NCBI GenBank assembly: GCA_001724265.1
Contig: MEDY01000321.1
Span: forward strand, 1 to 34,471
Direction of reading: 5' to 3'
From: Rhizaria sp. SCN 62-66
Lineage: Eukaryota
DNA: 34,471 nt
A program made the translations under genes and the position numbers. Each line of letters starts with the position of its first letter. The first letter of the stretch is position 1. This document shows positions 399 through 27,041 of this stretch, one piece after another. Below the pieces are notes generated by a model that saw nothing but the letters and a program-made list of their open reading frames with translations, ran no database searches and was not told the DNA's origin.

Positions 399-431
399 AC
401 TTAGACGGCGCGCCTACGTACTTAGACGGCG
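399..431. repeat. 12-bp direct repeat (acttagacggcg at 399-410 and 420-431) duplicating the nuclease stop-codon context
   Basis: Exact match at a period of 21 nt, read directly from the sequence. Confidence 0.8.
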
Positions 432-2000
432 GTGTATGGCTGCGAGAGCACGGCCTGCTGCTCCTGCGCCTGCTTGGCCTTGCGGTAGCTCACTACAGCG
501 ACGACGCATAGGGCCACCGAGAGCAGCGCGAAGACAACGGCGGCCGCGCGCCAGCCCTGCGACACGCCGCCGGCCTTGTCGTCGCCGTCGTGGGCGGGGA
601 TCTCGTGGTGCTGCGAGTAGTCAAGTTTGTTGAGCGTGTTGCCGAGGCGGTAGCCTGCCAGCGCGATGCGCTCGCGCAGCACCTTGCGCCACTTGGTGAT
701 GAACTCGGCCGACAGCGCACCCGCACCAGGGAGCGGCATGTCCGCGTAGGCCTCCTTGGCCAGCTCGAAGCTCTCCCAGGCCCAGCTCTTGACAGAGGTG
801 TCGAAGGTGGTGGCGTTCGTGAAGTTGGGCTCCAGCTGCTCGGCCGTGTAGGATGACGCGGGGAAGTCCTTCATGAGCTCGTCGGTCTCCTGCGCGATCA
901 GCGCCGCGTAGTCATCCGTCAGCGGGTGCGGCATGTATGAGCACCAGAGGCCCGCCACGCAGTCGAAGAGCAGGTGCGACTGCGAGTAGCGTGAGGAAGT
1001 GGGGTTAGGCGAACAAAATGGGGGATATAAAGATATTATAGTTGAGGGGTGAGCGGAAATGAGTAAATATAGATACAGTATAACTATATACACAATCAAA
1101 CCGAGATTAAGTCGATCCACCAACGATAAGTAGCTTCAAAACTTCTATGATGTCTCGTGAACCCATGCAATTTCTGAGCGACGTACCTGGACATATTTCA
1201 TGCCGGTCTCGGACGTGTACTCGACGGCGTACTTGTTGCCGCCCATGTCGCCGAGCGGGGGCAGAAAGTTGTGCTCCTTGGAGAAGAGCGAAACGGCGTG
1301 AAGCGGCTGGTGCATGTCGCCAATGAGGTGCAGCAGCATCAGCGTCGAGAAGCCCTTGCCCCAGATGCCCGTGTTGTCGGCCTTGGAGCTCATCGTCTTG
1401 TAGATGTTGGCCAGTCCGGCGAGCAGGTTGATCGACTCGGGCTGCGGAACGCCCTCGGGCGCGTCGTCGTCGCGCAGCGTATGCGGGAAGTCGATGAAGT
1501 GGTAGTTGTCGAACATGATGGTGTCACGCTTGATGTAGTCCATGAAGGTGCACGAGTACGGCAGCGACGTGATCTCCTCAGGGAAGTACTCCACGAACGT
1601 CTTGGTCGTGTCATCGACCTGCGTCAGCACGGCGCTCTTCATCGTGCGGCGGGCGATCTGAGCGCGCAAAGGAGAAAGTAGCGAAGTGAATGAGCGATCA
1701 GTTTCAAAATCGAGGAAAGAGTGGGGTCGTTGGGTGACACAAACAAGTTTGGGTTAGCATGACGGAGTGCGGTTCAAGTGATACTAACGTGTAGTGTTGG
1801 CTTAGGGTTGTTCCATAACACCAACGAGCTGTAGAGCTACTGATTGAAATCATGGTTCTGTAGGGCATCGTTTTAAAAGCGAGGAAAGAACAGGCGTGGC
1901 GACGTACCTCACCGACTAGAATGTGGCCAGTGTCGGCCCAGCCGAAAGCGCAGAGCGGAGCGGTCAGCAGAGCAGCAATGCACGCAAGGCGAATCAGCAT
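422..2000 (-). CDS. S1/P1 (class I) nuclease / 3'-nucleotidase-like, with signal peptide and C-terminal transmembrane anchor; exons 2000-1908, 1657-1187, 979-422; 373 aa
   Basis: Signal peptide MLIRLACIAALLTAPLCAFG followed by the mature N-terminal W-x3-GH (WADTGH). Further S1/P1 motifs: YHFID, LLHLIGDMHQPLH, GDMGGN, H-x3-D (SHLLFD), WAWESFELA, ERIALAGYRLG. Hydrophobic helix AAAVVFALLSVALCVVAVVSY near the end. Two GT-AG introns join three ORF-track fragments in frame. Stop is TAA. Confidence 0.93.
980..1186 (-). other. spliceosomal intron (207 nt, phase 0)
   Basis: CAG|GTACGT ... CCTAAC ... CGCAG|TCG. AT-rich, contains an in-frame TGA. Confidence 0.85.
1658..1907 (-). other. spliceosomal intron (250 nt, phase 0)
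   Basis: GAG|GTACGT ... pyrimidine-rich tract ... CTCAG|ATC. Joins GHILVGE to IARRTM, matching the S1/P1 pattern GH-x-x-V-x-x-IA. Confidence 0.88.
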
Positions 2001-2696: not shown

Positions 2697-4935
2697 ATGT
2701 CGTCACCGCTGCCGCCCGGCTGGTAGACGCGCAAGGACGACTGGGGCCGCGACTTCTACATTGACCACAACACCGGCACCACGCACTGGCAGCCCCCGAC
2801 CGGGTCTACGTCAGCGGCCAAGCCTGACGCGCCTCCCGCCTACGGCGAGCAGTCGCCGCCGCCGCAGCCGCCCCAGGCTGCTCCTTACCCGTCGTCGCAG
2901 TCCTACGGCCCGCCCCCGCAGTCGCCACAGCCGATGCCGCAGCCGCAGTTTGCGTCGTCCCCGGCGATGGTGGGCTACGCGCCGATGCCGGGCGCCGTGT
3001 CGAACATGGGCGTCGTGATGGGGATCCCCGTCGTCATGTCGAGCCTGCCGCCCGCGGCCACACTGCCCGCCGAGGTTATGTACGCCAACGGCGCCGCGTG
3101 CCCCGAGTTCGACGCCATGGCCTCGCACAGCACGGCCTCTGCGCAGCCGATGGTGAACCCGAACTCGGCGTTTGACGCGCTGCACTTCTGCTGCAGCTCG
3201 ATGCCCTGCTCCTTCGTCATCTCGCTCATCCTGCTCGGGCTGCTCATCGTACTCATCTACTGCGCCAGCATGTACAACTCGATCCCCAGCGGCGACTTTA
3301 TCCGCCGCGGCGACTACCTGCCCGGCATTATTATCCCCGCCATGTTCGGTTTTATGATCTACCTCGTCAACTGCATCACCAACCTGGCGCAGCTCAGCTG
3401 CTGCCCGCTCTGCATCGCGCCCTCGGCCTCGCTCAAGCGCGGCGCCTTCCACACGGCCGCGGGCGCCACGACGCCCATGGGCGGCACCTCGGGCGACGTT
3501 ACCCACGCCTCCAACGCCACCGCGGGCCACCGCGCCAGCAGTAGCTTCTGCGTCATGCCCGCCGTGTTCCGCTCGGCCTACTTCACTGAGCGCGCGAGTA
3601 TGGACGACGTCGTGGCGCACTTCGACCGCATGCGCGTCGCGCCCGTCAAGCTCTCAATCAAGGTCAAGTGCGGCCACCGCGTCCGCAGGCGCAAGCACAG
3701 CCACTACGTTGTCACATACAGGTACGCACTCACGCGCTTCGTTTTGAGCAAGCATTAATGGATATTGTTAGTACAGTATTGTTCAAGCATTATTCCGCGC
3801 TATCTTAACTGTTTGTGACATACATGGACGCAAAAAAATGTATCATGATATGCCCGTGTTAAATTTACTTCTTTCTTGTTTATTTTCGTTTTCGTTGCCT
3901 TTGCTTTGTTTTGCTTCCTACGTCTGCGCCCGGCCTCGTCATAGCGCCGACATCCCGTACACGATCACGGCCGCGCGCGACACGTCGCACTCGTCGCAGG
4001 CGCTGCGCGACGCGGCGAACCAGGTCTTTGGAAACGCCTTCCTGGCCGAGTTTGACTCGGGCTACGAGCCGACGCCGGAGAGCGCGCGCGTGATCGACGC
4101 TCTGCGCGCGCACTACGAGAGTAAGTACGCCGGCATGGACACCGACGTCAACGTGTGGACCGAGTACGCCACCGGCGTCGTGCCAGAGGTCGCCTCCGTG
4201 TTCGTGCAAAAGGTACGCATCATCTCTATTCATCTGCAGTCAAGAAACTCTCCCAGCGATCTCGATCGCAATCCCGACATCTCTCACAATTCTTCGATTC
4301 CTCGTTTGTTCTCTCTGCTGCATGCTCTATCCGCACAGGACCAGGGCCTGCCGTGCGTGCACGAGTGCGTGACGTCGCCACTGTGCGTGTGCTGCTCGAT
4401 CCTGCTGGCGTGCTTCCCCTGCTACCTCTGCTTCTGGCGCTGGTGCACTCCTTCGCTGACCGTGCGGTCTCGCAAGCACCTGGTGGTGTCGCCGCAGATC
4501 AACGCGCCCAACGTCAACATCGGCTCCGTGGGCACCACGCTGCCGGGCTTCTCCAGCTCGCTCCCGCCCGGCCAGACGGGCCAGCCCACGCACGTGCTCG
4601 TCGTGCCACAGGGCTCCGCGCTGCAGGGCTCGCCCGTGGGCCAGGGCCAGTACGTGTCCGTGTCGGCGGGGCAGTACGCCGTCGCGCAGCCGTCGCCGCA
4701 GCAGCAGTACGCGACCGCGCCCGTGCTTGTGCCGCAGCAGCACGTGTATCCGCAGCAGGGACAGCAGCAGCAGCAGCAGGGGTATGCCAGTCTGCAGACG
4801 CCGCAGCAGCATTACCACCAAATGCAGCCGCAGCAGCAGCCGCAGGTACAACAGCAGGGGCCGCCGAGCTACGTGCCGCCGCCGTCGTCGCCGCAGCAGC
4901 AGCAGCAGCAGTTCTATCCGCCGCCGCCCAAGTAA
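2697..4935 (+). CDS. WW-domain, TMEM151-like membrane protein with Pro/Gln-rich tails; exons 2697-3721, 3945-4212, 4339-4935; 629 aa if the in-frame TAG at 2724-2726 is read as sense
   Basis: ATG at 2697 gives [33 protein letters not shown], a complete WW signature in frame with ORF 2934-3758. Two TM helices (FVISLILLGLLIVLIYC, IIIPAMFGFMIYLVNC). The segment FDRMRVAPVKLSIKVKCGHRVRRRK...ARDTS recalls the TMEM151 family (from memory). Cys-rich hydrophobic segment and a Gln/Pro-rich C-terminus. Stop is TAA. Confidence 0.82.
3722..3944 (+). other. spliceosomal intron (223 nt, phase 2)
   Basis: AG|GTACGC ... T-rich ... CATAG|C. Restores the frame between ORFs 2934-3758 and 3838-4935. Confidence 0.85.
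4213..4338 (+). other. spliceosomal intron (126 nt, phase 0, no in-frame stop)
   Basis: AAG|GTACGC ... C/T-rich ... CACAG|GAC. Abrupt drop in GC and codon bias relative to the flanks. Confidence 0.8.
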
Positions 4936-6126: not shown

Positions 6127-9100
6127 TCACACGCCGACAAAGGCCGCGGCCACAGCAACGGCGGCGGCGAGCGCGAGTGCGGCGGTGGTCGCGTGCGCAG
6201 GCGCTGCGTTGTCGCGCGAGGAGACGCAGAGGCGGTGCGTGCAGTAGCCGGAGCCGCAGTCCGAGTCGGAGAAGCACATGTCGCCGACGGCGCATGCAAA
6301 ACAGGTGTTGCCGCAGTCAACGTCGGCCTCGTTCGAGTCGCGCTCGCCGTTGAAGCAGAGCTCGTCGTAGTCGCGGTAACCGCTGTAGGTGGTGGTGGTG
6401 GTACTCTTGACGATGCCGGAGATCTCGCTCTCGAGCACCGAGAGGCGCGTCTCGAGCGCGACCGACAGCGCGTCGCGCGAGGTGGCGCCTGTGCCCAGCA
6501 GCGCGACCGAGAGGACGACGCGGCCCGTCTTAGCGGAGAACTGGTGCGACGACAGGTGCGTCGTGAAGGTCACGCCTGTGAGCCGCAGCGGGTACAGACT
6601 TAGGATGGTCTTGACCTGGCCCTCGAGCAGCGCCGCGGTGGCCGCGAAGGTCGTCTCGTGCGTAATATAAAGCGTCAACCGCGGGCCCGTGATACCGGCG
6701 TATGCGCCCTGTGATGTCTCGATGAGCGTGTAGCCCGAGGCTGCATAGACGGCGATGCGGCGCGCCGAGTCAGCGGCCTGGCGGGCCGGGTAGATGACGT
6801 TGTCGCAGTAGAGCACGTAACTGTCAGCATCGCTGTCTGTGCGCACGGCTGTGGTGACGGGGACCGTGATGACGGACCCGGTGACGACGCTGCCGACCGT
6901 CACCAGCTCGTGCGTGGCCACAGCGATCATGACGGGCAGCGCCGAGCTGGCGTCCGGGTCGGCGTCAGGGTCGGACGTGACGTCCGCGGTGACATTGCCC
7001 AGCTCGTTAAAGAAGAGACGGCACTTGGTCGACAGCAGGTCCGTAGCGACGGTGAGGAACTCGCCAGGCAGCGAGAAGACAAAGCGCGAGCCCAGCGGGA
7101 GCGTGAGCTGCGAGTTGAGTCCGTCGAGCAGCACGGTCACGTTGGCCAGCCCGTCGGGGCCGCCGGGCGTGACGACCGTCTGCAGCGTGAGTTCGGAACT
7201 CGTTATCGCGGGCACGGGCTGCGACAGCACGAGGTTGTCCGCGTTGGCGGCGACCAGGCCCGGCGCAATGGCGCTCGCGCGGTAGGCGCGGACCGTCAGC
7301 GTGGGGGACTCGATCAGCAGCGAGTCGGACAGAGTGAAGTAGCCGTCGCGACGGCAGACCAGCTCGAGCGTGTCGAAGCGGTTCAGCGCAAAGGTGAGCA
7401 CGAACGAGAAGTATGAGATCTCAACAGAGCCGTCGGACAGTGCGTCAAGAATATAAGGGCGCTCCAGAGCAACGGTCTGGTTGTTGGCCTGTCGGAGAAA
7501 TAAAAATAAAGATAGAAGTAGAAAGCAAAGATGATGTGAGTGAGAAAGTAGCTTAACCACAACAGCGAAAAAAATTGTCAAAAATAAAGCACACATGTCG
7601 AACAAGAGATGTGCTTGTTCCCATCGCGATTGTACTCATTGAGTCACGTACCTTACAGTCGATGCTGATGGCTTCCGCGGCGGTGGCGTCGGCGGCCACG
7701 ACCATACGCGGCGGCAGCTCGATCAGCATCGAGTCTCCGGCAAGCAGGTCCGTGTTGGGGCCCTCGACCAGGAGGCGCAGCGCGGCCTTGGTGGTGCCGT
7801 AGGTGAAGGCGTCGGTCAGCGGCACGGATGGGTCGCGGATGAGCGCGAGCGTGACACCGACCTCATCGGTGGCGCGCGGAAACGGCACCGCGGGCGTGGC
7901 CGTGGTGAAGCCCATCGGCGCGGCCGCCACGGGGCTCGTGTTGGAGCCGTAGTAGGTGGAGACTGTGAGCCCCGAGCGCGAGTTGACGTGCGTGAAGCCG
8001 AGGTCGCCGAACCCCACGACAGGCTCCTGCGACAGCGTGATGTCGCACGCGAGCGTGATGTTGGCCGTGATTGAGTAGGAAATGACGCCGACGGGCTCGA
8101 CGCGCACTGTCTGGGTCGCCGACGCCGGGTTCGTCGTCACCGTCACGGCCTCAGCGTCAGCCATGACGTCGTTGTACCAGAAGGTGCAGCGGCCGCCGTT
8201 GGGGGGCACGCGCGCCTGCGCGGGCAGGTCGAAAATAAGGTACTCGGATGTCTGCGACAGCGAGGCCTGGTACGGCGCGAAGGAGATCTGCAGCGACGCC
8301 TCGGAGCCCGTGTACGGAAGATCGTAGAGGAACTGGCGGGAGAGGCCGCCGTAGTCGCTGGTGGTGATCATCGAGTACGAACCGAAGGCGGCCTGCGAGT
8401 CGGCTGACACGCGCACAAGCGTGTCAAACGACACGGCCGCGGCGGCCGCCAGTGAGGACGGCGCGCGGAAGGGCGAGATGGTGACGATGCGCGCAGTGAG
8501 TGCGTCATCGGGCAGGACGAGCGTGCACTGGAACGTGTAGGCCGTGTTGAAGGCGTAGGACGACTCGTGCTGCAGCTGCACGAAAAAGGACGAATGCGTC
8601 AGCACGAGCGTGGCGAGCGTGGTGACACCGTAGGTGCAGACGAGCCCCTTGGAGAGCAGCGAGAGGTCAAACTGCGTCGGCAGCTGCACGCGCAACGCGA
8701 CCGTGCTGTCGATGTAGACGTTGGCCGAGGACAGCGAGAAGTCGACCTTGGTGCTGAACGAGCTCAGCCCCGTGGAGGCGAGCACGGTGTTGAGCGCGAC
8801 GGTGCCCGTCTGCACCTCCGGGGCCGCGATCTGCGTGCGCCACACGGCGTTGCCGTCGCTGTTGTAGACCGTGAAGGCGACCAGGTCCGACGGCGAGTAG
8901 GCGATGGTGCGCGAGCGCAGGCCGGTGCACGACAGGCGCAGGATCGGGGGCAGCGTGGTGAGCTTGATCGAATACCGCGCGACCGAAACCTGCCCCGTGC
9001 CGTCCTGCTTCGACACCGGCTGCGCCTCGGCGGTCGTCGTGGGCACTGGTGCGTCCGTCTCGGTGGCCGTGCTGCGGGCGTAGAGCGCGCACTGCAGCGT

Positions 9101-10986
9101 CGCGTACTGCTCCGACACGGGCAGCGAGAAGGCCAGCACGTTGCCGACGACGTTGGCGATGTTGGCCGGCAGCGCGGCGGCGATCTGCAGCGTCGTGAGG
9201 TCTGAGCCCGCGGCCGGGTTGGGCGGCGTCAAGGTCACCGTGCGCGGCGCAGACGCGTCACCGGTGCCGAAGGACGACGACAGCGCGGGCATGGCCACGG
9301 ACGCGCGCGCGACGGCAACCCACGCGGCGGCGGCGTCGGGCGACGTGTTGTTGTTGTACACAGTGAGCACTGCGGTGAGGTCCGTGGGAAGGTAGGCCGG
9401 CATGACAAGGTTGGTGCACACGAGCTGCAGCGGCGTGGCCGCGGTCCACCCCGTCGTCGGCAGGTCGAACTGCCAGGCGTTGGTCTCGAGCGCTGACGCC
9501 GTGGTCGCAATGCCGACCTGCGCGGACGACGCCAGCGCAACCGTGCACGCGGGCGTGGCGCCCAGCGCGAACGCGGTCGGCAGCCGCAGGACCACGCGCG
9601 CGGTGGCCGTGGCCGACGTTGTGGGCGGTGCCACGCCGAGCGGGGTCACCGTGAGCGACATGGTGCTCGACGCTGTGACGGGCACAAGCGTGTTGCTAAG
9701 CGAGATGGCGAGCGTGTCCGCGCCGAGCGTGGGCGGCGCCGCGATGGCGAAGCGCACGGCGTCGATGACGGCGAAAGCGCGCGCGCCGCCGTCGCCGAGG
9801 TAGAGCCCCAGCTCGAAGGTGCGGCGCGGCAGCGAGGTCGCGATGGCAGGTGGCGTGACGCCGGGGCAGGTGATAACGAGCCGCGCCGAGGCCAACACAT
9901 GCGTATCAAAATCGAGCCTGACCGTGGGCATGGTCGAGCTGGACGAGACGAGGCGAGCGGTGCCCGTGACAGTGAGCGCGCTCGTGGCGAGGTTGCGCGT
10001 CGCGACGGTGCACGGCGTGTCCGTCGTTGAAGGGAAGGTCCAGGCGGCGGCGTCGTCCATGACGAAGTACGCGTTCGAGGCTTCGCCGAGCGGGAAGAGC
10101 GAGGCCGTGCCGGCGGTGTTAAGGACGGAGAACTCAAGCACGAGCGAACCCGGGACGCCGGCAACGCCCGCGTTGTGCGACATCTGCGGCACCGACGCGA
10201 TGACCTGCATCACGGGCGGGAAGATGAGCGCGCCCAGCGTTGTGGTGATGGCCGCCGTGTCGCGCAGCACGCGCGGCGAGATGTACATGGCCGCGATGGG
10301 CGAGAGCGGGTACGGCGCCGAGCATTGCAGTGACAGCGTCGCCGACAGCGTCGTCACGTCCGTCAGCGGGAGCGCCCAGCCGCCCGTCTCCGCCGTCACG
10401 GTGAGCGTAATGCGGTACTCGGTGCCCGTGGTCGAGGTCTGCACCGTGGGGATGGCCGCGCCATTCCACAGCAGCGCACACGCCGTAGTCGAGTCGGACA
10501 GCGCGGACGGCAGCAGAAAGTCGATCTCGTCGTTGGTGCGGAACGCAACGCCGCGGTTCGAGGCGGGGAAAGCCCAGGTCACGGTAACACGCGTGGTGCC
10601 CGAGGGTGCGGTGGCGTAGAGGTTGACCGGGGAAGTTGTGCGGACGACTTTGCTCATGTGCATGGGGCCGAAGTCGGGCAGCGCGGAAACGAGCGCGAAC
10701 GACGACAGCGACAGCAGCACGGCCGACATGAGGGCCACAACCGCCGCCATCTGCGCAGAAGCGGCACGCGCAGGAAGGGGGAAAGATGGTATGAGGTCAT
10801 GTCATGGTTAGAGTGTGAACAATAAGCGATACAGTTGTCAGGGCGGTGGATAGAGAGAGCGAAATGGGAGCACTTCAAATACGGTTGCGAGGAAAATACA
10901 ATGTGTACAAATGGCGGTATACGGCGGGGATATGACGTGATACGTACGGAAGCGGAGGACCGCAAGAAACTTGCGCTCCCTCGCAT
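6127..10986 (-). CDS. large secreted, probably GPI-anchored surface protein with ~8 degenerate two-Cys beta-rich repeats and a C-terminal Cys-rich module; exons 10986-10948 (tentative), 10750-7652, 7488-6127; ~1499 aa
   Basis: Signal peptide MAAVVALMSAVLLSLSSFALVSA. Thr/Ser/Val/Ala-rich repeats. Cys module CFNGERDSNEADVDCGNTCFACAVGDMCFSDSDCGSGYCTHRLC. Ends in small residues then a hydrophobic tail (DNAA...AALALAAAVAVAAAFVGV) with no cytosolic segment. Stop is TGA. The start could alternatively be the ATG at 10750. Confidence 0.85.
7489..7651 (-). other. spliceosomal intron (163 nt, phase 0)
   Basis: AAG|GTACGT ... long T/C tract ... GACAG|GCC. Joins ORFs 7553-10750 and 6127-7605. Confidence 0.88.
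10751..10947 (-). other. spliceosomal intron (197 nt) immediately before ATG 10750
   Basis: TCC|GTACGT ... TCTAAC ... CGCAG|ATG. An upstream ATG at 10986 gives 13 in-frame codons (MRGSASFLRSSAS). Confidence 0.65.
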
Positions 10987-13535: not shown

Positions 13536-16500
13536 TTACATCATATCCTTAAAGGACTTGCCGCGCTTGCCATTAGTCCGATCCCATGACGTTTTCGGTG
13601 TCGCTAAGCCCGCCTCCGCACCAGTAGGCAGCGCCCCTGTCTTCGAAACCGCAAAGGGGTTTGTATACTTTGCCTTAAGAGCGGTGCTGATGGGAAGCTT
13701 CGTTTCTTCGTTAATTGCAGTGCTCAAGCGCGCATTCAGGCCGAAGAGACGGGATAGCTTGCTCGGGACATTTCCACCGCTCGCAGTCGTGATGCTGTCA
13801 GTCTTGCTCTCTAAAACATGCGCACTGCGGCTCTCGTTACTCTGTGCAGTTGCACTCGCACTGCTGCTAATAGTCGAGCTACTTTTGCTGCTGCTCTCCG
13901 TGGTTGTCTTGCTGATGTGGTCTTTGAAAACGTCTTCGTCATGCAAACTCTGGAACGCACCCGCACCTGTCAGCATCTTGATCGGCGTAGTCGTTGTCGC
14001 TGCCGCTGCGACCTTGCGACTGCTGCTCTTGATCTTGCCCTCAGCAGCGGCAGCAGCAGAGGCAGGCTTGACCACAGGCGTGAGATTGCCAAGCAGAGTC
14101 GTTTGCACGCCCGCCAGCCCCATCGCAGCGCCCGTCTTGAAGATGTTGGCGCCACCCGCCACCACCAGCCCGCGCGCGCGCTCTTTGACACTATCCCGCG
14201 CCCCCAACGCCTCTGCCGCAGCCGCGGCCGACGGCTGAGCGACGGGCGCCGCGGCAGCGCGCTTGCGACGCACGGTCGTCTTGTTGTTCGCCGCACCTGT
14301 CGCGAGCACGGCGAACGACGACGGCACCACGGCGTGCGTGTTCATAAATCCGTGGCCGGGCGCCAGACCGCCGAGGCTCGCTGAAGCCGAGGCCAGCGAC
14401 GCGCGCAGGCCGGACAGCATGCGCGGGGCTGCGGGAACTGCGGGTCCGGTATGGCGACCGTTGTCATGGTCGTTGTCGCCATGGTCGTCGTCTACGCAGT
14501 CGAGGTCGCGGTCACGGTCGTCGTCTTGCATGTCGTTCGCGTCGATGTAGTTGTCATCACTATGAGCGTTGCGGCGGCTCGTCACGTGCGAGTTGAACCC
14601 GAGCGCGCGCATGCGCGCTGCGTAATCGGCCGAAATGAATGCGTCATCATCGAACTCGTTCGCAGCAGATGATGCGCCCGCACCATCGCTACTAAGGCGG
14701 GCGCGTTTCGGATTAAAGCCTGACGCGGTGCGGCCGTACATGTCAGCGTCATTGTCGCTGGCGTCGAGATCACGGTCGTCGTCGTAACTCTTAGCCTCAT
14801 TACTGCTGCTCTTCTGGCCGCTGCCGCCAAGCATTTGAGCAACCATGTCTTCGACGGTGAGAGTTGCCGCTGTTGTAGGCGCCACAGGAGCAGCCACGTC
14901 AATGTCTGCATGTGCGTCGAGGGTGCCCTGCTGTGTAAACGTGCCCGAAAGCATACTGTACGGAACTTGATGATTAGAAATGGGGTTTCTATAGCTAGGA
15001 TCGTGTTGATCCAAATCGTCACCGTACTCGTCGTCATCATGATCTTCGTGGTCTCCAGCGTTCGTCGACGCAGTTGCTCTGCTGTCATCAAAAGAGTCGG
15101 TAGCAGGCTTAGCCATATCGTTATTCTCGTTAACGTTGTTGCCATCAGGAAGACCTTTTGCAAGTGCTTCGGCGTCATCAACCGAGTCGGCGTTTTGATC
15201 AACCGAAGTACTTTCATCGCTACCCATAAAGCGAGTGATTAGCGCCAACGCTTTGCCATAATCAATCTCCATCGCGAGAGCAGAAGCCTTTCGACCATCA
15301 ACAGAGTCACCGCTCGCATCGACTTCGTTTTCGTTGTTAGTAAAACTCTTCTGGCTGCTGGTGCCGTTGATAATGTTGGCGGTGGCCGCGGGATTAAGGT
15401 CTTCCAACCGATCCGACTCGCTCTTCGGCTTCGCACTCTCGTCGCTATTTTCGTGGGTGCTGCTCATTCTATCTGTGGCTGCTAAACTGTCTAATGTTGC
15501 AGCTGCAGTCAGCGGCGGCGTTGCACCAGGCTCAGTCTTTATCAACGCATGAGAGTTGGACGATGCAGGGCGCTGTGGGGTGCGCTGTGGTGCATGCTGC
15601 GTTGCGTACTGTGTCGGTGCAAAGTGGCCCCGCTGCGATAAACCCTGAAGGTCATCGTGATCGTACTGGCTCCAGTTGCGAGCAGCGCTGCCGCTGTCAG
15701 AACTGCTACCAGCAGCACGGGCAGCAGCAGGCGTTCCTGACCGACTCGCGCCCTGACCAGCACTCGACGCAATGATCGGCCTCGTCGTCCTTCCTTGTGT
15801 CGGCGGTGTCTTAGTCGGTGTCGCGGTTGTCGAACTCTTCTGCGGCGTCGAACGCGCTGGTGAACGGTTGGTAGTTGCGCTCTGCGCTACACGCCGAGTT
15901 GCAGTCACTTCTTCTTCCATCATCTCCGTCAGCCACGTGAGCGACGCACCTTTGTTTGCGTCAACTCCATTACTCACATCAGCTTCGCTGTAATCATTAT
16001 CGTCGCCTGCCACAATCATATTGTGTTCCGCTAAGCTCGTGCTGCTATGCTTACTGTCGCTGTTCTTGTGCGTGTGCTTACTCGTGTGCTCGTCATCACG
16101 CCTATATGCAAATGAACGCAGAGCCTGGAGCGCCAGCCTGGGGTCAAGGTCGCTGCGCGGCACCGTCGCAGCCGCAACATCGTCGCGGTCATCGATGTGG
16201 CACAAACGGGCAATATGGTGAGCACTCTCTTGGGTGAGAGCAAACGCGCGCACACGTTCCGTTGCCCCAGGGGAAAGAGAGCCGTTTGATAACAAGGCAG
16301 CGGTGTCGGCGTCTGATAGAACGACACCCGGCTGCTGTAATGTTGCGGGAACACCAGGTACGAGGGCCGCCGCAGATTGCAAGCGCAAGAGCAGAATGGG
16401 ACGATAGTATGCATTGTCGTGTTTCGTAAGCCATGCAACAAACGCATCCGCAGCCTCTGCAGGCTTCAATTCGCGCTGCTGTTGCAGTTGCTCAGTGTCA

Positions 16501-19500
16501 AGACTAAGATCAGTGCGCCGACGATCATTGCGACTACGATCTTTGAGCGCGCGGTCACTGATATCGAGATCACCGGGCTCGTTGCCACCCGAGATCCAAG
16601 CGCGGTGCAGTGCAGCCTCTTGTTGCTCCGTGTTTAATGCGGCACCGCTTGCATCCGCGCTGTGGCTGGCACTACTATCGCTGCTGTTTGACACATTGTG
16701 GCCGTCACTTGCGTTATTGTTGTTGACGCTGTTGCGCTGAGCTGAAGCAAGCGTGCGTTTGTGTTCGCGCGCGCGGCGCCGGGTCTGACGTCCTTCCCAC
16801 TCGCGCACACACGCAATCGCGGCGGCAGCAGCAGCGGCAACGCTCATGCCGCCACTTGCTGCACCTGCTGGCGCGGCGCCCTCGTCGCCGTCACCGTCGG
16901 GCGCTGCCGTACCACTGTTTGACGCCGGCGCGCTGAAGCTAAAACCTCCGGCGCTACTGCCATTACTGTGACCGTTGTAGCTGCTTGTTGAAACGCCGAG
17001 AAGATCAAGCAGTTGTTTTGAGGCGGCGAGCTCGTCCTCACGCGCCCATACAGCCTCGGCAGCAAGAACTGCAGCCGCACGCGCAAGCATCCCACGCACG
17101 CACGATGTCGCGGCGCCAAGAGTAAGCCCCGTGGGCGCAACCGAAAACGGTGCTGCTGCAGTCACGCACTGTGCAATGAGTGGAGATTCAGATTCACGCG
17201 TAGATCCCGCCAAGACTACCGCGGAAGCAGATGTAGAGTTAGCCGTATCAGTACTCAGACGCGTGTTAAAAGAGAATCGCATGCGCTGCAGTGCAGGGTT
17301 CTGTGCGCGCACTCGTGCAGCCCTGGCCAACGCTAGCACAACTGTGGGGGCGCAGAAGTCGCTGGGGCCCTGCAACACCTTGTCAGTGCCGCATAACACA
17401 GGAAATGTCGTCAGTGCACCAGGTCTTGAGCTTGCACTCCTCTTGCTCGGCTTGCGGGAGCTCTTATTCGCAGTCACATCGTGGTGCTCCAAAAACGCGA
17501 CTGCGGCGGCCACGGCGGCGTCTGCGTCTGCTTCAGCTAGCACAGCAGAGTCGCCGTCCTCAGCGAGGCCGGCAACGCGCGACAGCGTGCGTGCGGCGCC
17601 AGCGGCGGTGGCTGCGGTGGCGAGGCGTGCTTGGGCGGCAATAAGTGCAAACAGCACAGCCGCAGTTGGAGGCGCAAAGCTACCGGCAGCATGACCGGTG
17701 GTAGCGCTAGTGCTGCTGCGGCTTACAGTCGCACCAACAGGGCGAACAGTGATGACGGTGGTGTTGTCCGCACTTGTAGCGTCGGCCCAGTCAAAAGCGG
17801 TGGCTGCAGCGTTGCTGGTAGTGGCACCAGCGCTAAAACCTGAGTTCGAAGTCGCCGAGAAGGCAACGTTAGCGTTGCTGTCTCCTGATGACAGAGAGTA
17901 AAATGTGCTGCATTGCGCAACCGTAAGAAATGGAAGCAGCTCACGGACACAGACATCGGATGCCCGGAACAAGTCGCAACGACGAGACTCGTGGTAGCTC
18001 TGATGATGCCGTGTCAGCGGCCGCTGCGACAACGCGTAAGGCATCGGCAGATTGTTGTAGGAATGAAAGTAAACACGAGCACTGTGACCGGGAGTGCGAG
18101 TGCTACTCTGAGTGCCCGAGTGTCCGTGAGCATCAACGTGGCCGCGAGCACGCGGTGACGAGAACGTGCTGATTGCCTCACCAGTTTGCAGAATCGAGAA
18201 GGCGGAAGAAGCAACTGTAAGCAATGGCTGAACCCAACCCAGTGCGAGCGCAATGTCTGCTCCAGTAAGCGGCTCGAGTGGAATTCCTGCTTGTACACTC
18301 CCGCCACTATTGAAGCTGCTATTGACATTTCTACTGTTGTTTGTCGTCAGATGCAGAAGCACGCAAGCCGCGAGCTCAGCCTGAGTCCGCGCCTTAGCGC
18401 CCGCAGCCGTGGCAGCGGCGAGCTCTGCGGCCGTCGCAAGCTCAGCCTTGCTCGTGCTGACAGCAGTGCCGGTCGTGCGTCCGCTCAGCACGTCCGCAAC
18501 CGTGCTCGCGCTCTGCTGCTGCTGTCTGTCGCTGCTGCGCTGCGCGTGGCTCGCCAGGATGCGCAGCATCGGAAGCTCAAGAGGAATAAGCGACAGCGAC
18601 ACGCCACTCCCGGTAGCCACAACGCCAGGCCCCGCCTCGTGCGCACTCGTATTGGCGCCGCCCGCAGTGGCCGCGGTGGCAGTTGATGTAGGCAGCGCCA
18701 GCAGCTGCAGCAGCGCCTTGCTCACGCCAAGTCCTAACACCGGCGGCAGAGCCGGCGTGCTGTGAGCTTGATTATGAAAAGAGGCAGAAGCGGAGTGCGA
18801 CTGTTGTTGCTCTGCAGCGCGCCAGTTGGCAAGCGCCCTGCGCAACCTCTCTTCGCGCTCGCGCTCACGAGCATCCGCGTCTGCAACCGCGGCAGCAAAC
18901 GAAGCGAGCGCACCAGCAATGTCAAAGCGCCCCATAAACCCCCTCGGCATGTGCATGTTGAGCGTGCTTTTGACGTGCGACTCGGGGGACTCGAACCGCA
19001 CGCGCCAAGCCTGTGCCGCTGCAAGCGCCTCGTCCTCCCAACGCGGCTGTAGCAGCAGTGAGCGCGGACACATCGCGCCCAGCAGCAGCGGCAGCACAAA
19101 AGCCGGCGGAAGGGGCGGGCCCAAAAAGCACAAGTCGCGCCGTGAGATACGATAAGTCTTGCCAGAAACGGGCGGGCCACCTGGCGCGGGTGCGTGGCCG
19201 TAAACAGAGTGGTTGTGGGTCGATGCCGACGTAGACGGGGATGCAGACACGGATGCAGCGGCGCCGTGGGCAGTTACTCCCATGACTGCAAAAGCTGGTG
19301 TCGGAGCATGAGCAGACAGTGCGGAGTAGGAGTGCGAGACGAACGGCAGACATGCAGCTGCAGCGGCAACAGCCTTAGAGCCTAAGTCTGGTGCCCCCAC
19401 CCATGGCAAAGCAGCGCCACCGCTGTGTGTGCCATGCTCGGCAGCTGCACATGAGTCTGACGTGGTGCAGTGTGAATGGAGATGGTATGTGCGAGCGGAA

Positions 19501-22500
19501 GACGGGGGCACGGGGGGCGGCGCCGTCGTCCAGAGATCGGGCGGGGGCGCGAAGATAACCGTGGCAGGGAACAGCAAGGATGCGAGTGATACAAAGACAC
19601 TCTGATCATTGTCCGCGCTAACTGCGTTGTCTTCGCCGCAGCAGACGCAAGTCACTGTACGCACACCGCTGTCGTTTACCACGCTAGCTCCAGTAGAGCA
19701 GTCATGTGCAAGTAGTGACACGGCCGCAGCAACAAGGCCGACAGGCGGGACGCTGTCAGTGTCATTCTCGCCCTCACACTCATTGCCGCATTTCCTCTGC
19801 ATCGCGACCTCAGACAGAATGCTCCTAGCGCCGCGCTGCTCTGAGTTACGCACGACATCCGCGAGGAACTGCCACGGTATCGCAGCGCGGCGGCCCGCAG
19901 CCTTAGCAGGCGCAATAGGGCGACCACCGCGACTGGCACCGTCGACAGTTATACCAGCGCCACCACTCTTGTTCATGCCACTCTTAGCACGCGCACCATT
20001 ACTGCTGTTGCTGCCATTGTACAACAAAGCGTTATTGTTGTTAGCGCTGAAGCTGGCGCTCAGCAAGCTAGCGTTTGAGATCGAGTCAGTAGATGAAGTG
20101 TGAATTGCAGCGGCGCACTGTGGGCACACAGGCAACTCCGGCACATTCACGGCTGCAGGCGCAGCAGAAGCGGATGAACCGTCGCTCATCGCCAATGTTG
20201 CTGTCAATGCGTTGTCGCCCAGCAACGAGTCCACCGCTGCACCGTCAGTTGCATTCGCACTCGCAGATGAGCTGCTGTTGCCCGCGTGCGCTGCGTTACG
20301 AGCAGAAGCGGCATCTGGGTTCCGATTACGTGAGTGCACAAACGCGTGGTTGTGCATGCGCAACCGGTAGAAGTCAACCGCTTTCGCGGGGCCCAAGCGC
20401 GGGTCCAGCGGCGTAGACCGCGACTGGTCCCAGAACGCCGCGTCCAGCGGGTTCAGCGACGACCGCGGCGGCACGCGCGGCGCCGCAGTCGCCAGCGTGT
20501 CCCGCCAGCAGTGACCGTGAGCAGCGCCCGAAGAGCCCAGCCCGGTGGGAGTAAACGGGAAACGGGCGTCAAGGCGCGGTGGTGAAGGCATAGCGGGCGC
20601 GATCGTAAGCGCGGCCAGATCGCCGACCATCGAGTGGCGAAAACCAAGGCGTGCGCGCGCGAAGGCGGCCACAAAGTACGGTGAACGCGCGGACAGATAT
20701 GGCACGGTTGTCGCGGTGGCTGCAGCGCTCGCAGCAGCGGCTGCTGCAGCAGCAGCGTAATATGGCGACGGCTGCAGCGTCGCGGTCGCCACAGAAGCGT
20801 ACCCACCGTCAGAGAGAGCTGCAGAGTCCGTGCTTGTAGCAGATGCAGCCGCGGCCTTAGCTGCACGCGTGTGCGCGGCCTCAGCCTCCTCAGCAGCCTC
20901 AGTCGCGGCAATCACCGCGAGCACCTCCTCGCCCGAGCCCGTTTCCGTCTCCAGAAACATGCGCAGCGCGGTCTTGACGCCCATGCGCGGCAGGGACGGC
21001 AAGTAATCGCAGCCCGAGAGCAGACACACGTCGATAAAGCGCGAGCGCGAAGCCGACGCGAGCGCCAGCAGCGCGGAGAGGTCGTGGCGGGACACGGACG
21101 GCACTGCGGGCAGCGGCAGCGCCTGGGGCGGCGCGGGCAGCGCGGGCTGAGCGCGCGGAGCGGCGGGTGCCGCGGCAGGCTTCGTGGTCACTTCAGCCAC
21201 TGTAGTCGCTGATGTCACCGCCGCAACTGCAACAGCGGCGTTGTTGTTGTTGCTAATGCCGCTGGTCGTATTGCTATTGTAGCCATAGTCTTGCTCAATA
21301 TCTGAGTCCCCATCGATATGGATATCGGGCTGCAGCCGACTCACATCACCGCCGTTCGCAGCAATGACGCCGAACAGCGACAGAGACGACTATGATGATG
21401 ACGACGACGGCAGTGACAAAGACGCAGGAACTGCTGCGCTGTCGGCCTCCGTTTCCTTCCCTTTGGCGGCTTTGGGCTTGCGACCCCGCTTCGCCGCAGC
21501 AGGCTTCATTGACACAGCATCGTCGCCGTCGTCGCCGTCAACAATTGCCGTTGCAGTCGCTATTGCGCCCTTCTTCCTCGCGCTAACCTTGCTCGACGCA
21601 GCGTCAGTGCTATGGCTGTTGTTAGCACCGCGTTTCATCAGCAGTGCAAAGGCATTAGTCTGCGGCGTCACGAGCGCGGTTGAAGGGGAAGATGAATCAC
21701 CCACCGGAGTGCTGAAGTCGATCGTGACGGTGTCAGGCAGCGCGGGTGTTGGCAGACCGCTGCCGCTCGCGCCACTGGCACCGCGGCGACCACGGCCACT
21801 TGCGCCAGTTTGCGCTAGGAGAGAAAGCGTCGAGATGTCATCACCCTCATCGCCATCGTTGCAGTTGCTTGCATCGGCTGCAGCGGCGTCTGCTGTCACG
21901 GTCGCAATGACAGCGCGCACACGCGCCAACAACGCCGCGTCGCGTGCACTCGCGCTCCCGCTCGCGTCCCCAGCCTGCTTCTGCAGTGCGTGCGACTGCG
22001 GGTACAGCAATGACTGCGGCTGCGCCTGTGCTTCCGCGTGCGTGAGCGCAGCGATAACGTGCGCGGCCCACTCGCGGCGCCACTGCCGCAACAGCACGGC
22101 AAGCCCCGCGCGCGCGGCGGCGTCGTCACGGTGGAACCAGAACGCCGCCGCGTCGTCCGCGGCGCCCGTGTTGACGTTGAGGCACGACCAGTCGTTCTCA
22201 TCATCAGCATCACTGCTGGCGTCGCCGTTGCTCTCGCTGTTGTTGCCAAAGATGCTCGCGATGAAGGCGACGACGCCCTCGGCGACCGCGACGCCGTCCG
22301 CGCCCCTGATCGCGCCCGCGCTGCCGGTCGCGACGCCGCCGTTGGCGCCGATGTTGGCCTGCGACATCGCGTCGACCTCGAGAGAGCGCGCTGCGAACCG
22401 CGGCTGCCCGTCCACAAAGCTCAGCCCGCGCACATCGTCGGCAGCACCAGAGCTTGGTCCGGCGCTGGCGCTGCTGCTGCTGCTGCTCGATTTGCTGGTA

Positions 22501-24351
22501 TTGGTGGCTGCGGAAGCAGAGCGCTGCTTCGCGCCGGCGCCGCGCTTTGAGGCTGCGGCGGCAGCGATTGATGCTGCCGTTGCGGCTGCGGTCGCCGACG
22601 CCAGCGGCAGCAGCGTTTGCGCAGTGGCGGCGAGCTGCGCGAAGTCGAAGTCGGCGCTCATGCTGTTCACAGTCGCGAGAAGTGAGTTTGTGTGACTGTG
22701 ACTTCGAGCAGTGCTGCTGCTGTTCTTGTCATTGTGAAAAGCAGTGTCAGTGCGACGGTGAGATGGATCCTTGGCGACATCCCAAGAGTTGGCACTCCTG
22801 CTCTCAGTGATGTTACCGTCGTTTGAAGCTGTTCCGTCCTGCTCCGGAGTGTTATCGTCGTCAGGATGCGGCCACTCCTCGAGTGAGTCGTAGAACAAAG
22901 CGACTGTGAGAGCGCCCACGCTGCCGACCCACGGGCCTAACGCGCGCCCACAGTCACTCTCGTGCCCACTCAGCCGACTGGGATCAGGACTGTGGCCATG
23001 ACCGAGACTGGGAGTGTATGCGAGATGTGGGGCATGCGCCTGCAGCCATACGTGGCGGCGGCGCCACTCGAGCAGCGCCAGCACGGCCGTGCGCGTCTGC
23101 ACCATCAGACCGCTGCCGCCGGCCCGGTCAGCACTGCGCTGGGATGAGCTGCTCACATCGGAGTGACTGTGCGCGGCGGTGAGGCTGATGCCGGTGAGCG
23201 ACAGTGGCAGTGCGCAGTCGCTGCCGAGACCAAGTCCAGCGGCAACGTTAGACAGGAGCAACTGTGGCGACTGACGTTGCTGACGCTGAAGAATGCTATC
23301 GTCGTTATCGGCGTTATCACCGTTATCAGTCATCAACACAACTGCGTTGTGGTCACTGTCGTTGTCCGCGGCAGTGACAGCTGTGGAGGCAGGCGTGGAT
23401 GCGACAGCGAGCCTGATCGCAAGCGCAGACGCTTCCTTCGTAAGCCTGGGGAAGCCGTGGCCAGTGATGCCCGCCAGGACCCTTAGATCCGCAAGCACCC
23501 CCTTGGACACGTCGACCCACTCGCCCCAGCCGTCGCCGCTCACGCCCGCGGCGAACCCGGCGTTGCCGGCGCCGATGCCGCTGCTGCTGTTGCTGCTGTT
23601 GTTGAGCTTCAGCAGTAACCGCGCGCAGCCGAACGCGAGCAGGTCCGAATCCTCCGTGACGGCTGCGGCGACGAGCCCGCGGTGGTAGAGGGCCGCGATC
23701 TGCGCGTCCGCCTCGTAGGGCGCGACGAGCCACGGCACGCCCGCGCGCGACAGCAGGCGCTGGAACGCGCGAGAGAGCAGCCGCGTCGGGCGCAACGACC
23801 GCGCCAGCGCCGTTTCCGCCTCCGCGGCCGCCGCGGCAGCGCTCGCGGCCGAGGCCTGCCCAGTGCCGGCAGCGCCAGTAGCGGAGGCGGAAGACGCGAG
23901 CGCGAGGCCGTGCGCGATAAGCGTGCGGCGGCGGTCCGCGCGCGTGGCGGCAACGGCGTCCTTAAGCGGGGGCGACGCGCCGTCGAAAACGAGCACGGGC
24001 AGCACGCCGTTGTGGAGCAGAGTGTCGAGCAGCGACTGCAAGAAGCGCAGCGGGGCCAGCGTGGGGAAATCGAACGCCAGCTCCAGCGAGGCCGTATACA
24101 GCGAGCGGTACAGCCAGGCAGAGGCGTCCACAGCCACACGCTTGCCACGCAGCTCGCGCACGTGCATGCTGAGTTGAATAAGGAGCCGTTACGAGAAAGA
24201 ACATGAAATAAGAGTGTGTGAGTGAAGAATGGGGCAAGAGTTGTTGCTGAGACAGTGAAGTCCGGGAGGGCGACGTGAGATAGAGAATCAAAATGTGAAC
24301 GTACGGGCGCGTCGCGGGGCGCAAAACAGAGAGTAAACCTTTAACACCCAT
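13536..24351 (-). CDS. EXO1: exonuclease 1-like XPG/Rad2-family 5' nuclease, greatly expanded by low-complexity insertions; exons 24351-24305 and 24168-13536; 3559 aa if the in-frame TAG at 21392-21390 is read as sense
   Basis: Spliced N-terminus MGVKGLLSVLRPATRPMHVRELRGKRVAVDASAWLYR. Motifs VFDG, APYEADAQIAAL and TEDSDLLAFG lie before the TAG. The H3TH motif FIDVCLLSGCDYLPSLPRMGVKTA, then FARARLGFRHSMV and DLCFLGPPLP, lie after it. ORFs 21390-24167 and 13536-21344 share one frame and are separated only by that TAG. Stop is TAA. Confidence 0.85.
24169..24304 (-). other. spliceosomal intron (136 nt, phase 2)
   Basis: CC|GTACGT ... CTCAG|C. Joins MGVKGLL to the rest of the XPG-N domain. Confidence 0.9.
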
Positions 24352-24878
24352 GGTGGTGCGAAGCGGAGAGCAGACGGTGCTGCTGTGTTCAGACGCGGAT
24401 CAGTGGCGAGGTGAGGTTGCGAGAACAGTGGTTGTCGACCTCAGTTTGTGTTATAGAGCTACGCGTGCAAGGATCCAAGATGCGAGATTTATAGAAATAT
24501 TACATAAGTACGCAATTCAAATCGTAGCAAACAATTATAACGAGTAAACAGTCAGTGGATATGTCGGGATACTAGTTGTGAATGAGGCGCCAAAGCACAG
24601 CGCGAGGCAAGGGTCGCGATGGAGTTCGGCAAGATACGCGTTTCGAGGAGAGTGATCTCCAGGTCAACATCCGTCAAACATCCTGGCGTCCCGCTATGGT
24701 ATTACCGCACATGTTTTGTATATTCTCTTAAAATTAAATCTTGATCTCTGCTCACCTTCCTAGTGAAATCGCCTCGTATCCAAACTTTCGCCCGACCTTC
24801 AAACGATAACTTCGCTTTACCTTCTCCCACACCCCTGCAGCTCGCCACCCCACTTGTCCTTCCGCCCGGCACCCCGTC
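24352..24878. promoter_or_regulatory. probable bidirectional promoter region between head-to-head EXO1 and APH-1
   Basis: 527-bp, more AT-rich spacer between two divergent ATGs. No specific element was identified. Confidence 0.4.
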
Positions 24879-25883: not shown

Positions 25884-27041
25884 TTAGTCCTTCTTAGCAA
25901 CAGGTGCAGCGGCCCCAGCAGCGGTCGCGGCCGCGGCAGCCTTAACGCGCTTGTCGTGGACGCTCTTGGCGATGCCGTTGTACATCCACACGTATCCTAT
26001 GGCGACCGCGCGCAGCACCGAGGCCGAAAGGACCTGGATCAACGCAGTGGCGCCGCCGTCGACCGGGGAGAAGCCGGCGGTGACGCAGCCCAGCACGTGG
26101 CCGTCGAAGCCGGTCTGGATAAAGAAGCGGTAGCGCTCGATGCCGGCGACGACGTCGCGCGCGATGTCGGCCGCGGGGAAGAGCCCGGTGCCCTCAGACA
26201 TGAGCTTGCATTCCTCGGGCTTATGGGCCATCTCGGCCGCGTACATCGGCGTGTCCACGTCGGGCGGGTTGCACACCGAAACCGCGATGCCGTGCGGACG
26301 CGCCTCCATGTGCAGCACCTCGGCGAAGCCGCGCACGGCGAACTTGGTCGGCGCGTAGGCCGAGTAACCGAAGATGCCCGCCTGGCCGGCCATGGACGAG
26401 ATGAGCACGATGCGGCCTGACTTCTGCGCCTTCATCGCCGGCAGCACGGCCTTGGTGCAGATCACCACGCCCAGGTAGTTGATGCGCACCATGCGCTCAA
26501 ACTCGCGCACTGGGATGTCGTCGATGTGGTTCGGCGTCGACACGCCCGCAGACGCGATCAGGCAGTCCACCGTGGTGTACTTGGCGGCGAACGCGGCGAC
26601 GGCGGCGTTGACCGCGGCCTCGTCGCTAACGTCCACCGAGTACGTCACAATCTCGGTCTTGGAGCCCGTCTGCGTGGCCAGCGCGGCGAGCTGCGCGCGC
26701 GCGGCGTCGAGCGTGGCCTGTGTGCGCGCCATCAGCGCGACGGCGCGCGCGTGTTTGCGTACCAGCGACTCGGCGATGCTCAGGCCGATGCCGCTGGAGC
26801 CGCCGGTAACGATGAACGTCTTGCCCGCAATCTAAGGGGGGCGCAGGGTTTAGGGAGGGAAAGCAGCGAGTGAGATATTGAATGTGACGGAGATAAGATG
26901 TAAAGCCGGAAGATAGATAGCGAAAGACAGATGTGTAAAACGAACCTTCATGTTGGGGATGCGCTCGCTAAGGAACTCGAGAGCAATGCCGAGGACGGCA
27001 ATAAAGGCGACAATGCCGCCAAGAACGTAGAGCCAGCACAT
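25884..27041 (-). CDS. KDSR: 3-ketodihydrosphingosine reductase (KDSR/FVT1/TSC10-like SDR); exons 27041-26946, 26831-25884; 347 aa
   Basis: N-terminal membrane anchor. TGGSSGIG, INYLG, LISSMAG, GYSAYAPTKFAVRG (YxxxK) and PPDVDTP motifs. C-terminal hydrophobic segment. Stop is TAA. Confidence 0.88.
26832..26945 (-). other. spliceosomal intron (114 nt, phase 0)
   Basis: AAG|GTTCGT ... CCTTAG|ATT. Contains an in-frame TAA. Confidence 0.88.

Follow-up and report, generated by a model that had tools for sequence, protein, structure and literature searches.

A split EXO1 gene and a WW-domain gene point to TAG as a probable rare sense codon in a GC-rich eukaryote from bioreactor metagenomes

Results

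An EXO1 gene with a single in-frame TAG

The metagenome contig MEDY01000321.1 (assembly GCA_001724265.1, deposited as Rhizaria sp. SCN 62-66) was analysed over its stretch of 34,471 nucleotides, here called the window, and its minus strand carries a predicted EXO1-type nuclease gene that is divided by one in-frame TAG at 21390..21392. The gene has two exons and about 3559 codons. Exon 1 (24305..24351) begins with ATG at 24351-24349, reads MGVKGLLSVLRPATRP, ends in a codon split by the intron and supplies the MG.KGLL start of the protein. Intron 1 (136 nt, 24169..24304, GC content 0.46) runs from GTACGTTCAC to CAACTCAG with the 5' site GTACGT at 24304, and its removal (GTACGT...CAG) splices exon 1 in phase to ...MHVRELRGKRVAVD. 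The part of exon 2 that precedes the TAG (21393..24168) encodes the XPG N region (Pfam XPG-N, approximately 23925-24164) and the first half of the XPG I region (XPG-I, approximately 23589-23741), and then enters an Ala/Ser/Asp-rich low-complexity insertion of about 830 residues (21093..23582), delimited as the gap between collinear profile matches and containing the TAG as residue 926 of the exon-2 product. The second half of the nuclease domain with the helix-3-turn-helix (H3TH; SGCDY at 21003-21017, GVKTAL) follows at 20892..21092. The whole remainder of exon 2 after the TAG (13536..21389) comprises 2617 codons, is mostly of low complexity and terminates with TAA at 13536-13538. The Pfam XPG_N match begins at profile position 20, and the absent start of the domain was found in the upstream exon; the first ATG of the open reading frame (ORF) in exon 2 (24167) is thus not the true start of EXO1.

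The minus-strand frame from 24188 to 13536 contains a single in-frame stop, the TAG, which is located within a serine run (CCG TCG TCG TCA TCA TCA TAG TCG TCT CTG TCG CTG TTC GGC, translated as SLSLPSSSSS[TAG]SSLSLFGVIAANGGDV). Its 3551 codons (13536..24188) include no stop other than this TAG and the terminal TAA, whereas the remaining minus-strand frames have 73 and 184, so the frame is open far beyond chance. An earlier reading made from the sequence alone (the sequence-only reading) had placed a 925-aa ORF (21390..24167) and a 2602-aa ORF (13536..21344) in one common frame, joined at SLSLPSSSSS-[TAG] and free of other lesions over a long distance; the frame arithmetic (21389-13536+1 = 7854 nt = 2618 codons), the minus-strand sequence of the junction and the stop counts given above bear this out. 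It had also seen no AT-rich, intron-like segment at the TAG, in agreement with a GC content of 0.56-0.61 in the flanks versus 0.42-0.48 in the verified introns of the window. Scored for coding potential, the 65 codons that precede the TAG reach 0.369 in frame 0 (EXO1 mean, 0.381), and the other frames score -0.89 and -0.63.

Domain searches placed parts of a nuclease domain on both sides of the TAG. Upstream, Pfam recovered XPG_N at residues 2-81 (42.2 bits, cut-off 22) and XPG_I at residues 143-193 (profile positions 1-52 of 89, 60.2 bits); downstream, XPG_I continued with positions 60-89 of 89 at an E-value of 0.097, which is under the cut-off when taken alone, and no Pfam family was found in the post-TAG product beyond the H3TH part. 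As a MAFFT alignment did not place the H3TH segments of query and homologues together, a profile was made from 60 EXO1 homologues, of which the first 400 residues were taken. Profile positions 17-193 matched read-through residues 1-195 with 159.6 bits, and positions 196-262 matched residues 1026-1092 with 26.5 bits (E 1.8e-10 in a one-sequence search). As the two matches are collinear and abutting, the 925-aa and 2602-aa ORFs are, judged from these profiles, one EXO1 gene, as the sequence-only reading had proposed, and its nuclease domain is split by the insertion of about 830 residues. The N-terminal part matched residues 17-192 of human EXO1 (E 1.1e-28), and the stretch after the TAG matched residues 205-250 of FEN1 (E 0.014) and residues 213-241 of EXO1 (E 0.043).

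The assignment to EXO1 follows the ranking of scores in the PDB search (EXO1 103.6 bits, RAD2 67.1, FEN1 64.3), and the named relatives in databases were mostly EXO1 as well. The features of the XPG/FEN1 family that were examined are present, namely the XPG N region, the acidic I region and a GxDY helix-3-turn-helix collinear with the I region. The acidic motifs described as intact by the sequence-only reading were all recovered upstream of the TAG (VAVDAS, VFDGA, PYEADAQ, TEDSDL), and the SGCDY motif lies downstream of it where that reading had put it. VAPYEADAQ and TEDSDLLAFGC are conserved in the alignment with human EXO1, and the acidic motifs YEADAQ and TEDSD are those that we take to be the catalytic, metal-binding residues of the XPG I region. 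Resemblance to the nuclease domain of human EXO1 (PDB 3QEA, 5V09 and others) is thus found in the N region, the I region, the acidic motifs and an H3TH that reads LSGCDYLPS, whereas the insertion between the I region and the H3TH and a tail of about 2400 residues set the protein of the window apart. With about 3559 residues it is approximately four times the length of the vertebrate EXO1 matches (about 800-850). The tail (13539-20891, minus strand) consists of some 2400 low-complexity residues with no recognisable domain.

Relatives of this gene are distant. Among proteins of 1948-6201 aa searched for EXO1 relatives, only the 2602-aa ORF of the window itself was found, and the closest relatives among shorter proteins, searched with query residues 1-240, had 26-41% identity over at least 3/4 of the query, with no close species among them. 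With residues 720-1090 as the query, which span the TAG, the 925-aa ORF of the window itself was the only match, so that no fragment with a different codon at this position was recovered. Scanning metagenomes for related DNA yielded two distant EXO1 loci, and at one of them (L002; GC 0.44-0.50, EXO1 ORF of 685 codons) no in-frame TAG was evident within real genes; genome and viral contig collections were scanned for further DNA of the organism or its relatives, and none was found.

A second in-frame TAG in a WW-domain gene

A gene for a WW-domain membrane protein is located at 2697..3758 on the plus strand and ends with TAA. The Pfam WW match of its ORF at 2727..3758 was only partial (positions 17-31, 20.0 bits without read-through); therefore the sequence upstream was read, and a TAG was found at 2724-2726, which is codon 10 of a frame starting ATG TCG TCA CCG CTG CCG CCC GGC TGG TAG ACG CGC AAG (MSSPLPPGW[TAG]). 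When the TAG was translated as X, the match extended over positions 1-31 of 31 and reached 28.7 bits, over the cut-off of 26.9, with the TAG positioned between LPPGW and the remainder of the WW domain. The complete protein has a WW domain, a PPxY motif and a membrane part.

An exhaustive search returned two orthologues with the same domain architecture (P0097, 45% identity; P0099, 34% identity) that both cover the N-terminus, with a similar start and a WW domain, and both have glutamate at the position of the TAG. All relatives of this WW-membrane family came from metagenome records. We also counted the residue that follows P.GW in 314 WW-like matches, present in 137 of the 149 other best matches: glutamate occurred 285 times, followed by S (9), D and T (5 each), V, G, Q and A (2 each), R and K (1 each), and leucine was absent (0). 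In public gene calls the protein (P0093, 274 aa, on 7 contigs) begins at Met80, and its WW domain has therefore been lost from the databases.

Codon counts and gene ends

All TAGs of the window were scanned and, judged from the contexts listed, only those of the EXO1 and WW genes lie in real coding frames. The trusted frames amount to 8118 codons with two TAG, no TAA and no TGA, i.e. approximately 0.25 TAG per 1000 codons. Nine gene ends were available, none of them TAG: TAA ends the genes of the S1/P1 nuclease, the WW protein, ORF 3838-4935, EXO1, a KDSR-like short-chain dehydrogenase/reductase (SDR) and a Got1/Sft2-like protein (6 of 9), and TGA ends the 6127 gene and the genes of a NAD-binding protein and Aph-1 (3 of 9). 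High-scoring ORFs that do end in TAG are antisense frames or, at 1145..1753, an exon whose frame continues into the intron. The distribution of TAG in frame versus at gene ends (2/0 versus 0/9) gives p = 1/55 in a hand-computed Fisher exact test.

Introns of the organism

Four introns were verified in the window, with lengths of 114-250 nt, which we presume not to be ciliate-like, a GC content of 0.42-0.48 and a best-frame coding score of at most 0.1. Their 5' splice sites are unusually uniform and all read GT(A/T)CGT, with GTACGT in EXO1 intron 1 and in both introns of the S1/P1 nuclease gene and GTTCGT in the remaining one. The S1/P1 nuclease gene (422-2000, minus strand) has three exons, and its introns, from 1907 and 1186, both start GTACGTCGC; after its TAA at 422-424 a further intron or exon, or an intron in the 3' untranslated region (UTR), may follow. 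The intron of the KDSR-like SDR gene (114 nt, 26832-26945, minus strand) starts with GTTCGT and ends ...ccttAG, its 3' site being the TAG at 26834-26832. Exon 1 of this gene starts with an ATG at approximately 27040 and encodes a membrane helix; the ESM Atlas record of the protein starts at an internal Met (residue 34) and drops the TGGSSGIG nucleotide-binding motif. Motifs resembling a branch site (CTAAC) occur upstream of 3' splice sites. On the minus strand GTACGT is found at 24304, 12041, 10947, 7651, 5734, 1907, 1186 and 421, and at some of these positions further introns are likely; the one at 7651 would merge ORF 7553..10801 with ORF 6127..7635 in a single gene. On the EXO1 strand, GTA[CT]GT marks intron 1 at 24304 and is absent from the EXO1 ORF.

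Occurrence and strain variation

The window belongs to an uncultured eukaryote with a GC-rich, intron-bearing genome that has been encountered in bioreactor and wastewater metagenomes, and the runs of these two kinds that contain its sequence date from 2015 to 2025. Three collections, JGI/IMG, Logan and ENA, record the exact 925-aa product terminated by the TAG on 7 contigs in total. DNA contigs of 3507 nt (20896-24402) from the runs X2 and X3 span the EXO1 TAG with 0 differences. These two runs are filed under separate studies and years, yet they show the same contigs and near-identical depths on the window, and they are probably a single data set filed twice. We do not count them as independent, because their numbers are mutually identical and the study of X2 is that of the likely source of the window.

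A contig from another study and the year 2025 (run X4, 21119-21867) also spans the EXO1 TAG and differs from the window by five substitutions and an in-frame GCC insertion. Three of the five substitutions are listed (21235, 21264, 21593), none of them at the TAG, and as the sole T>G change of X4 is at 16019, a change from TAG to TCG is ruled out there. The TAG thus appears to have been kept in X4 ten years later, although it may have become another sense codon in this strain, which diverges from the window by approximately 0.3-1.3%. The GCC insertion, at 21761, is a polymorphism seen in both 2025 runs, X4 and X5. Strain divergence is uneven along EXO1, with 26 differences in 2048 nt at 14790-16837 and 0-3 per contig elsewhere. 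Contigs of the polyA RNA run X5 flank the TAG at 21658-22122 and 20437-20691 and continue as far as 13956-14186; among the pieces listed none spans it, and such contigs are unable to show absence. The contig joints seen over the window are all in low-complexity DNA, and their shorter side measures at most 26 letters.

Discussion

TAG as a rare sense codon

We consider it probable that the organism decodes TAG as a rare sense codon throughout its genome and keeps TAA and TGA as stops. A tRNA with the anticodon CUA would decode UAG, the release factor would spare it, and TAA and TGA would remain the terminators. The EXO1 TAG would then be an ordinary codon of the insertion of about 830 residues, within a single gene of two exons and about 3559 codons. 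The sequence-only reading had already argued for decoding of the EXO1 TAG, and this view gains support from the second in-frame TAG in the WW gene and from the lack of TAG at the nine gene ends, decoding itself being inferred. The extension of the phenomenon beyond EXO1, the upstream exon with its intron, and the spliceosomal introns of the organism were not part of that reading.

The identity of the amino acid is less clear. At the WW site, both orthologues (2/2) and 285 of 314 WW domains would fit glutamate, and at the EXO1 site the serine run would fit serine. A code with UAG as glutamate and with UAA and UGA as stops, in an unrecognised lineage seen solely in metagenomes, with a GC-rich genome and a captured codon that is nearly unused, is possible but rather doubtful. 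To our knowledge, no such combination of UAG as glutamate with both UAA and UGA as stops is among the NCBI tables, and a literature search, whose coverage excluded subscription journals, returned no report of this organism and none of UAG as glutamate with UAA retained as a stop.

Several observations weigh against a general reassignment. The EXO1 and WW sites suggest different amino acids and roughly cancel each other, with Glu and Ser in the lead, and of the 7 SSxSS contexts elsewhere in the proteins of the window, 4 have serine as x. The TAG codons number just two, in two genes, of which one is at a conserved position (E in 2/2) and the other in unalignable low-complexity sequence. A frequency of approximately 0.25 per 1000 codons is far below that of the lineages described in the cited excerpts, such as the rhizarian exLh with 384 in-frame UAGs in 71 genes (PMC5304391). 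The EXO1 TAG is a single C>A step away from TCG, just as a fresh nonsense mutation would appear. With nine gene ends the sample is small, and one of them, the TAA of the S1/P1 nuclease gene (422-424), lies directly 5' of a GTACGT and is therefore possibly not a true end. The window contains 0 tRNA genes and no eRF1 gene. Finally, among the 38 listed differences between X4 and the window in the EXO1 coding sequence, 13 are synonymous and 25 are not, with 11.3 synonymous ones expected by chance, and no purifying selection is detectable downstream of the TAG in these differences; as disordered low-complexity sequence evolves likewise, this result speaks against decoding or is at best neutral.

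A recent nonsense mutation from TCG to TAG would account for the one-step distance from the adjacent TCG serine codons and for the share of synonymous changes among the downstream strain differences, which is not raised above chance (13 of 38 versus 11.3 expected). EXO1 would then end after 941 residues without its H3TH, as a young pseudogene or null allele, and the WW TAG would be a separate lesion. This explanation, which we regard as unlikely, requires that TAG arose twice independently as a lesion among about 10 genes, while 8118 codons acquired neither a TAA or TGA lesion nor a frameshift, and the lesion in the WW gene would delete a domain whose match to the orthologues is still near-perfect. 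Moreover, the TAG is apparently retained in the X4 strain over ten years and a divergence of about 0.3-1.3%, the only EXO1 indel listed for X4 is the in-frame GCC insertion, and 0 of the 38 listed substitutions create a stop. Alternatively, TAG could be a genuine stop with leaky or programmed read-through by near-cognate tRNAs, giving short and long isoforms of EXO1. Read-through of UAG occurs in eukaryotes and their viruses, and the rarity of the codon is compatible with inefficient reading. However, no flanking motif is common to both TAGs (the next codons are TCG TCT and ACG CGC), the 100 nt after each TAG fold no better than shuffled sequences (z -0.89 and +1.12), and TAG occurs at none of the 9 gene ends. 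Termination at codon 10 of the WW gene would leave a peptide of 9 residues, so efficient decoding would be needed there, and read-through seems quite improbable to us as the general explanation.

Another way to remove the EXO1 TAG from the mRNA would be a small or unusual intron, ending for example in ...catcatAG, a possibility that the sequence-only reading had itself raised as a check. The organism does have introns, the 3' splice site of the KDSR-like SDR gene is a TAG (...ccttAG at 26833-26832), and an in-phase GT (aag|GTTAGC) is found 198 nt upstream of the EXO1 TAG. On the other hand, neither GTTAGC nor any of the 9 other in-phase GT candidates within 600 nt upstream matches the strict GT(A/T)CGT of the verified introns, i.e. 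no 5' site near the TAG fits the consensus of the organism. The segment before the TAG is coding-like (score 0.369, GC 0.61), and the short sides of the contig joints (at most 26 letters, in low-complexity DNA) speak against splicing as well. In the WW gene, the TAG has LPPGW on one side and the remainder of the domain on the other and therefore cannot be intronic. Taken together, a spliced-out TAG is highly improbable, and the same holds for a sequencing or assembly error or for RNA editing that turns UAG into a sense codon, in favour of which we found no supporting point. The identical 925-aa product on 7 contigs in three collections and the contigs of other runs that span the site make an assembly error at the EXO1 TAG very unlikely, and we know of no precedent for editing of UAG in nuclear mRNAs of this kind.

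Comparison with known reassigned codes

Decoding of TAG as a rare sense codon can be set beside reassigned codes described elsewhere, as far as the excerpts of the cited papers go. In the rhizarian exLh, UAG encodes leucine and UAA stays a stop, and in Iotanema spirale UAG encodes glutamine, again with UAA as a stop (PMC5304391); phyllopharyngean ciliates use UAG for leucine or glutamine (PMC11687900). The window resembles these lineages in having in-frame UAG in conserved genes, UAA as a terminator and UAG not seen as one, but its genome is GC-rich and holds only 2 TAG in 8118 codons, whereas the codon is abundant in theirs, and its WW site suggests Glu rather than Leu or Gln (L in 0 and Q in 2 of the 314 WW domains). 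In the green alga Scotinosphaera, TAG encodes serine, occurs at conserved serine positions otherwise encoded by TCC/TCG, and TAA and TGA are the stops (PMC8271138; UAG as Ser in this alga is also cited in PMC11687900). The window would share with it the reassignment of TAG alone, with TAA and TGA as stops, and the location of the EXO1 TAG in a serine run one step from TCG; it differs at the WW site, with glutamate in 2/2 orthologues and serine in just 9 of 314. Nothing found ties the organism to the green algae; as a weak hint, the Atlas cluster closest to Aph-1 has Streptophyta as its most frequent group, and the Atlas look-up of the KDSR-like SDR gave no decisive placement. Codes with UAG as glutamate are described for peritrich ciliates (UAR as Glu) and the oligohymenophorean PL0344 (UAG as Glu, UAA as Lys; PMC10553269, PMC11687900), and UAR is glutamate in Blastocrithidia (PMC12153298). 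The probable glutamate at the conserved WW site would be in line with these codes; UAA is, however, reassigned in all of them, and TAA ends 6 of 9 genes here. In the excerpted text of PMC5304391, PMC11687900 and PMC8271138, the UAG-only reassignments listed are to Leu, Gln and Ser, and Glu is absent from that list.

Implications

Standard-code gene calling has already shortened public proteins of this organism, with EXO1 split into products of 925 and 2602 aa and the WW protein called from Met80. That an EXO1 nuclease domain would tolerate an insertion of 830 residues is a curiosity for the structure of these nucleases. If the organism is a relative of Scotinosphaera with TAG as serine, its code is already known. 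Nuclear codes that split the meanings of UAG and UAA are so far known in few lineages, and each new case tests ideas on the capture of stop codons. The case in the window, if true, would be unusual twice, in its GC-rich genome and in the very low frequency of the reassigned codon, and a reassignment in its early or intermediate phase would be expected to look like this. Should UAG indeed encode glutamate, the early capture of this codon would not have been driven by AT pressure.

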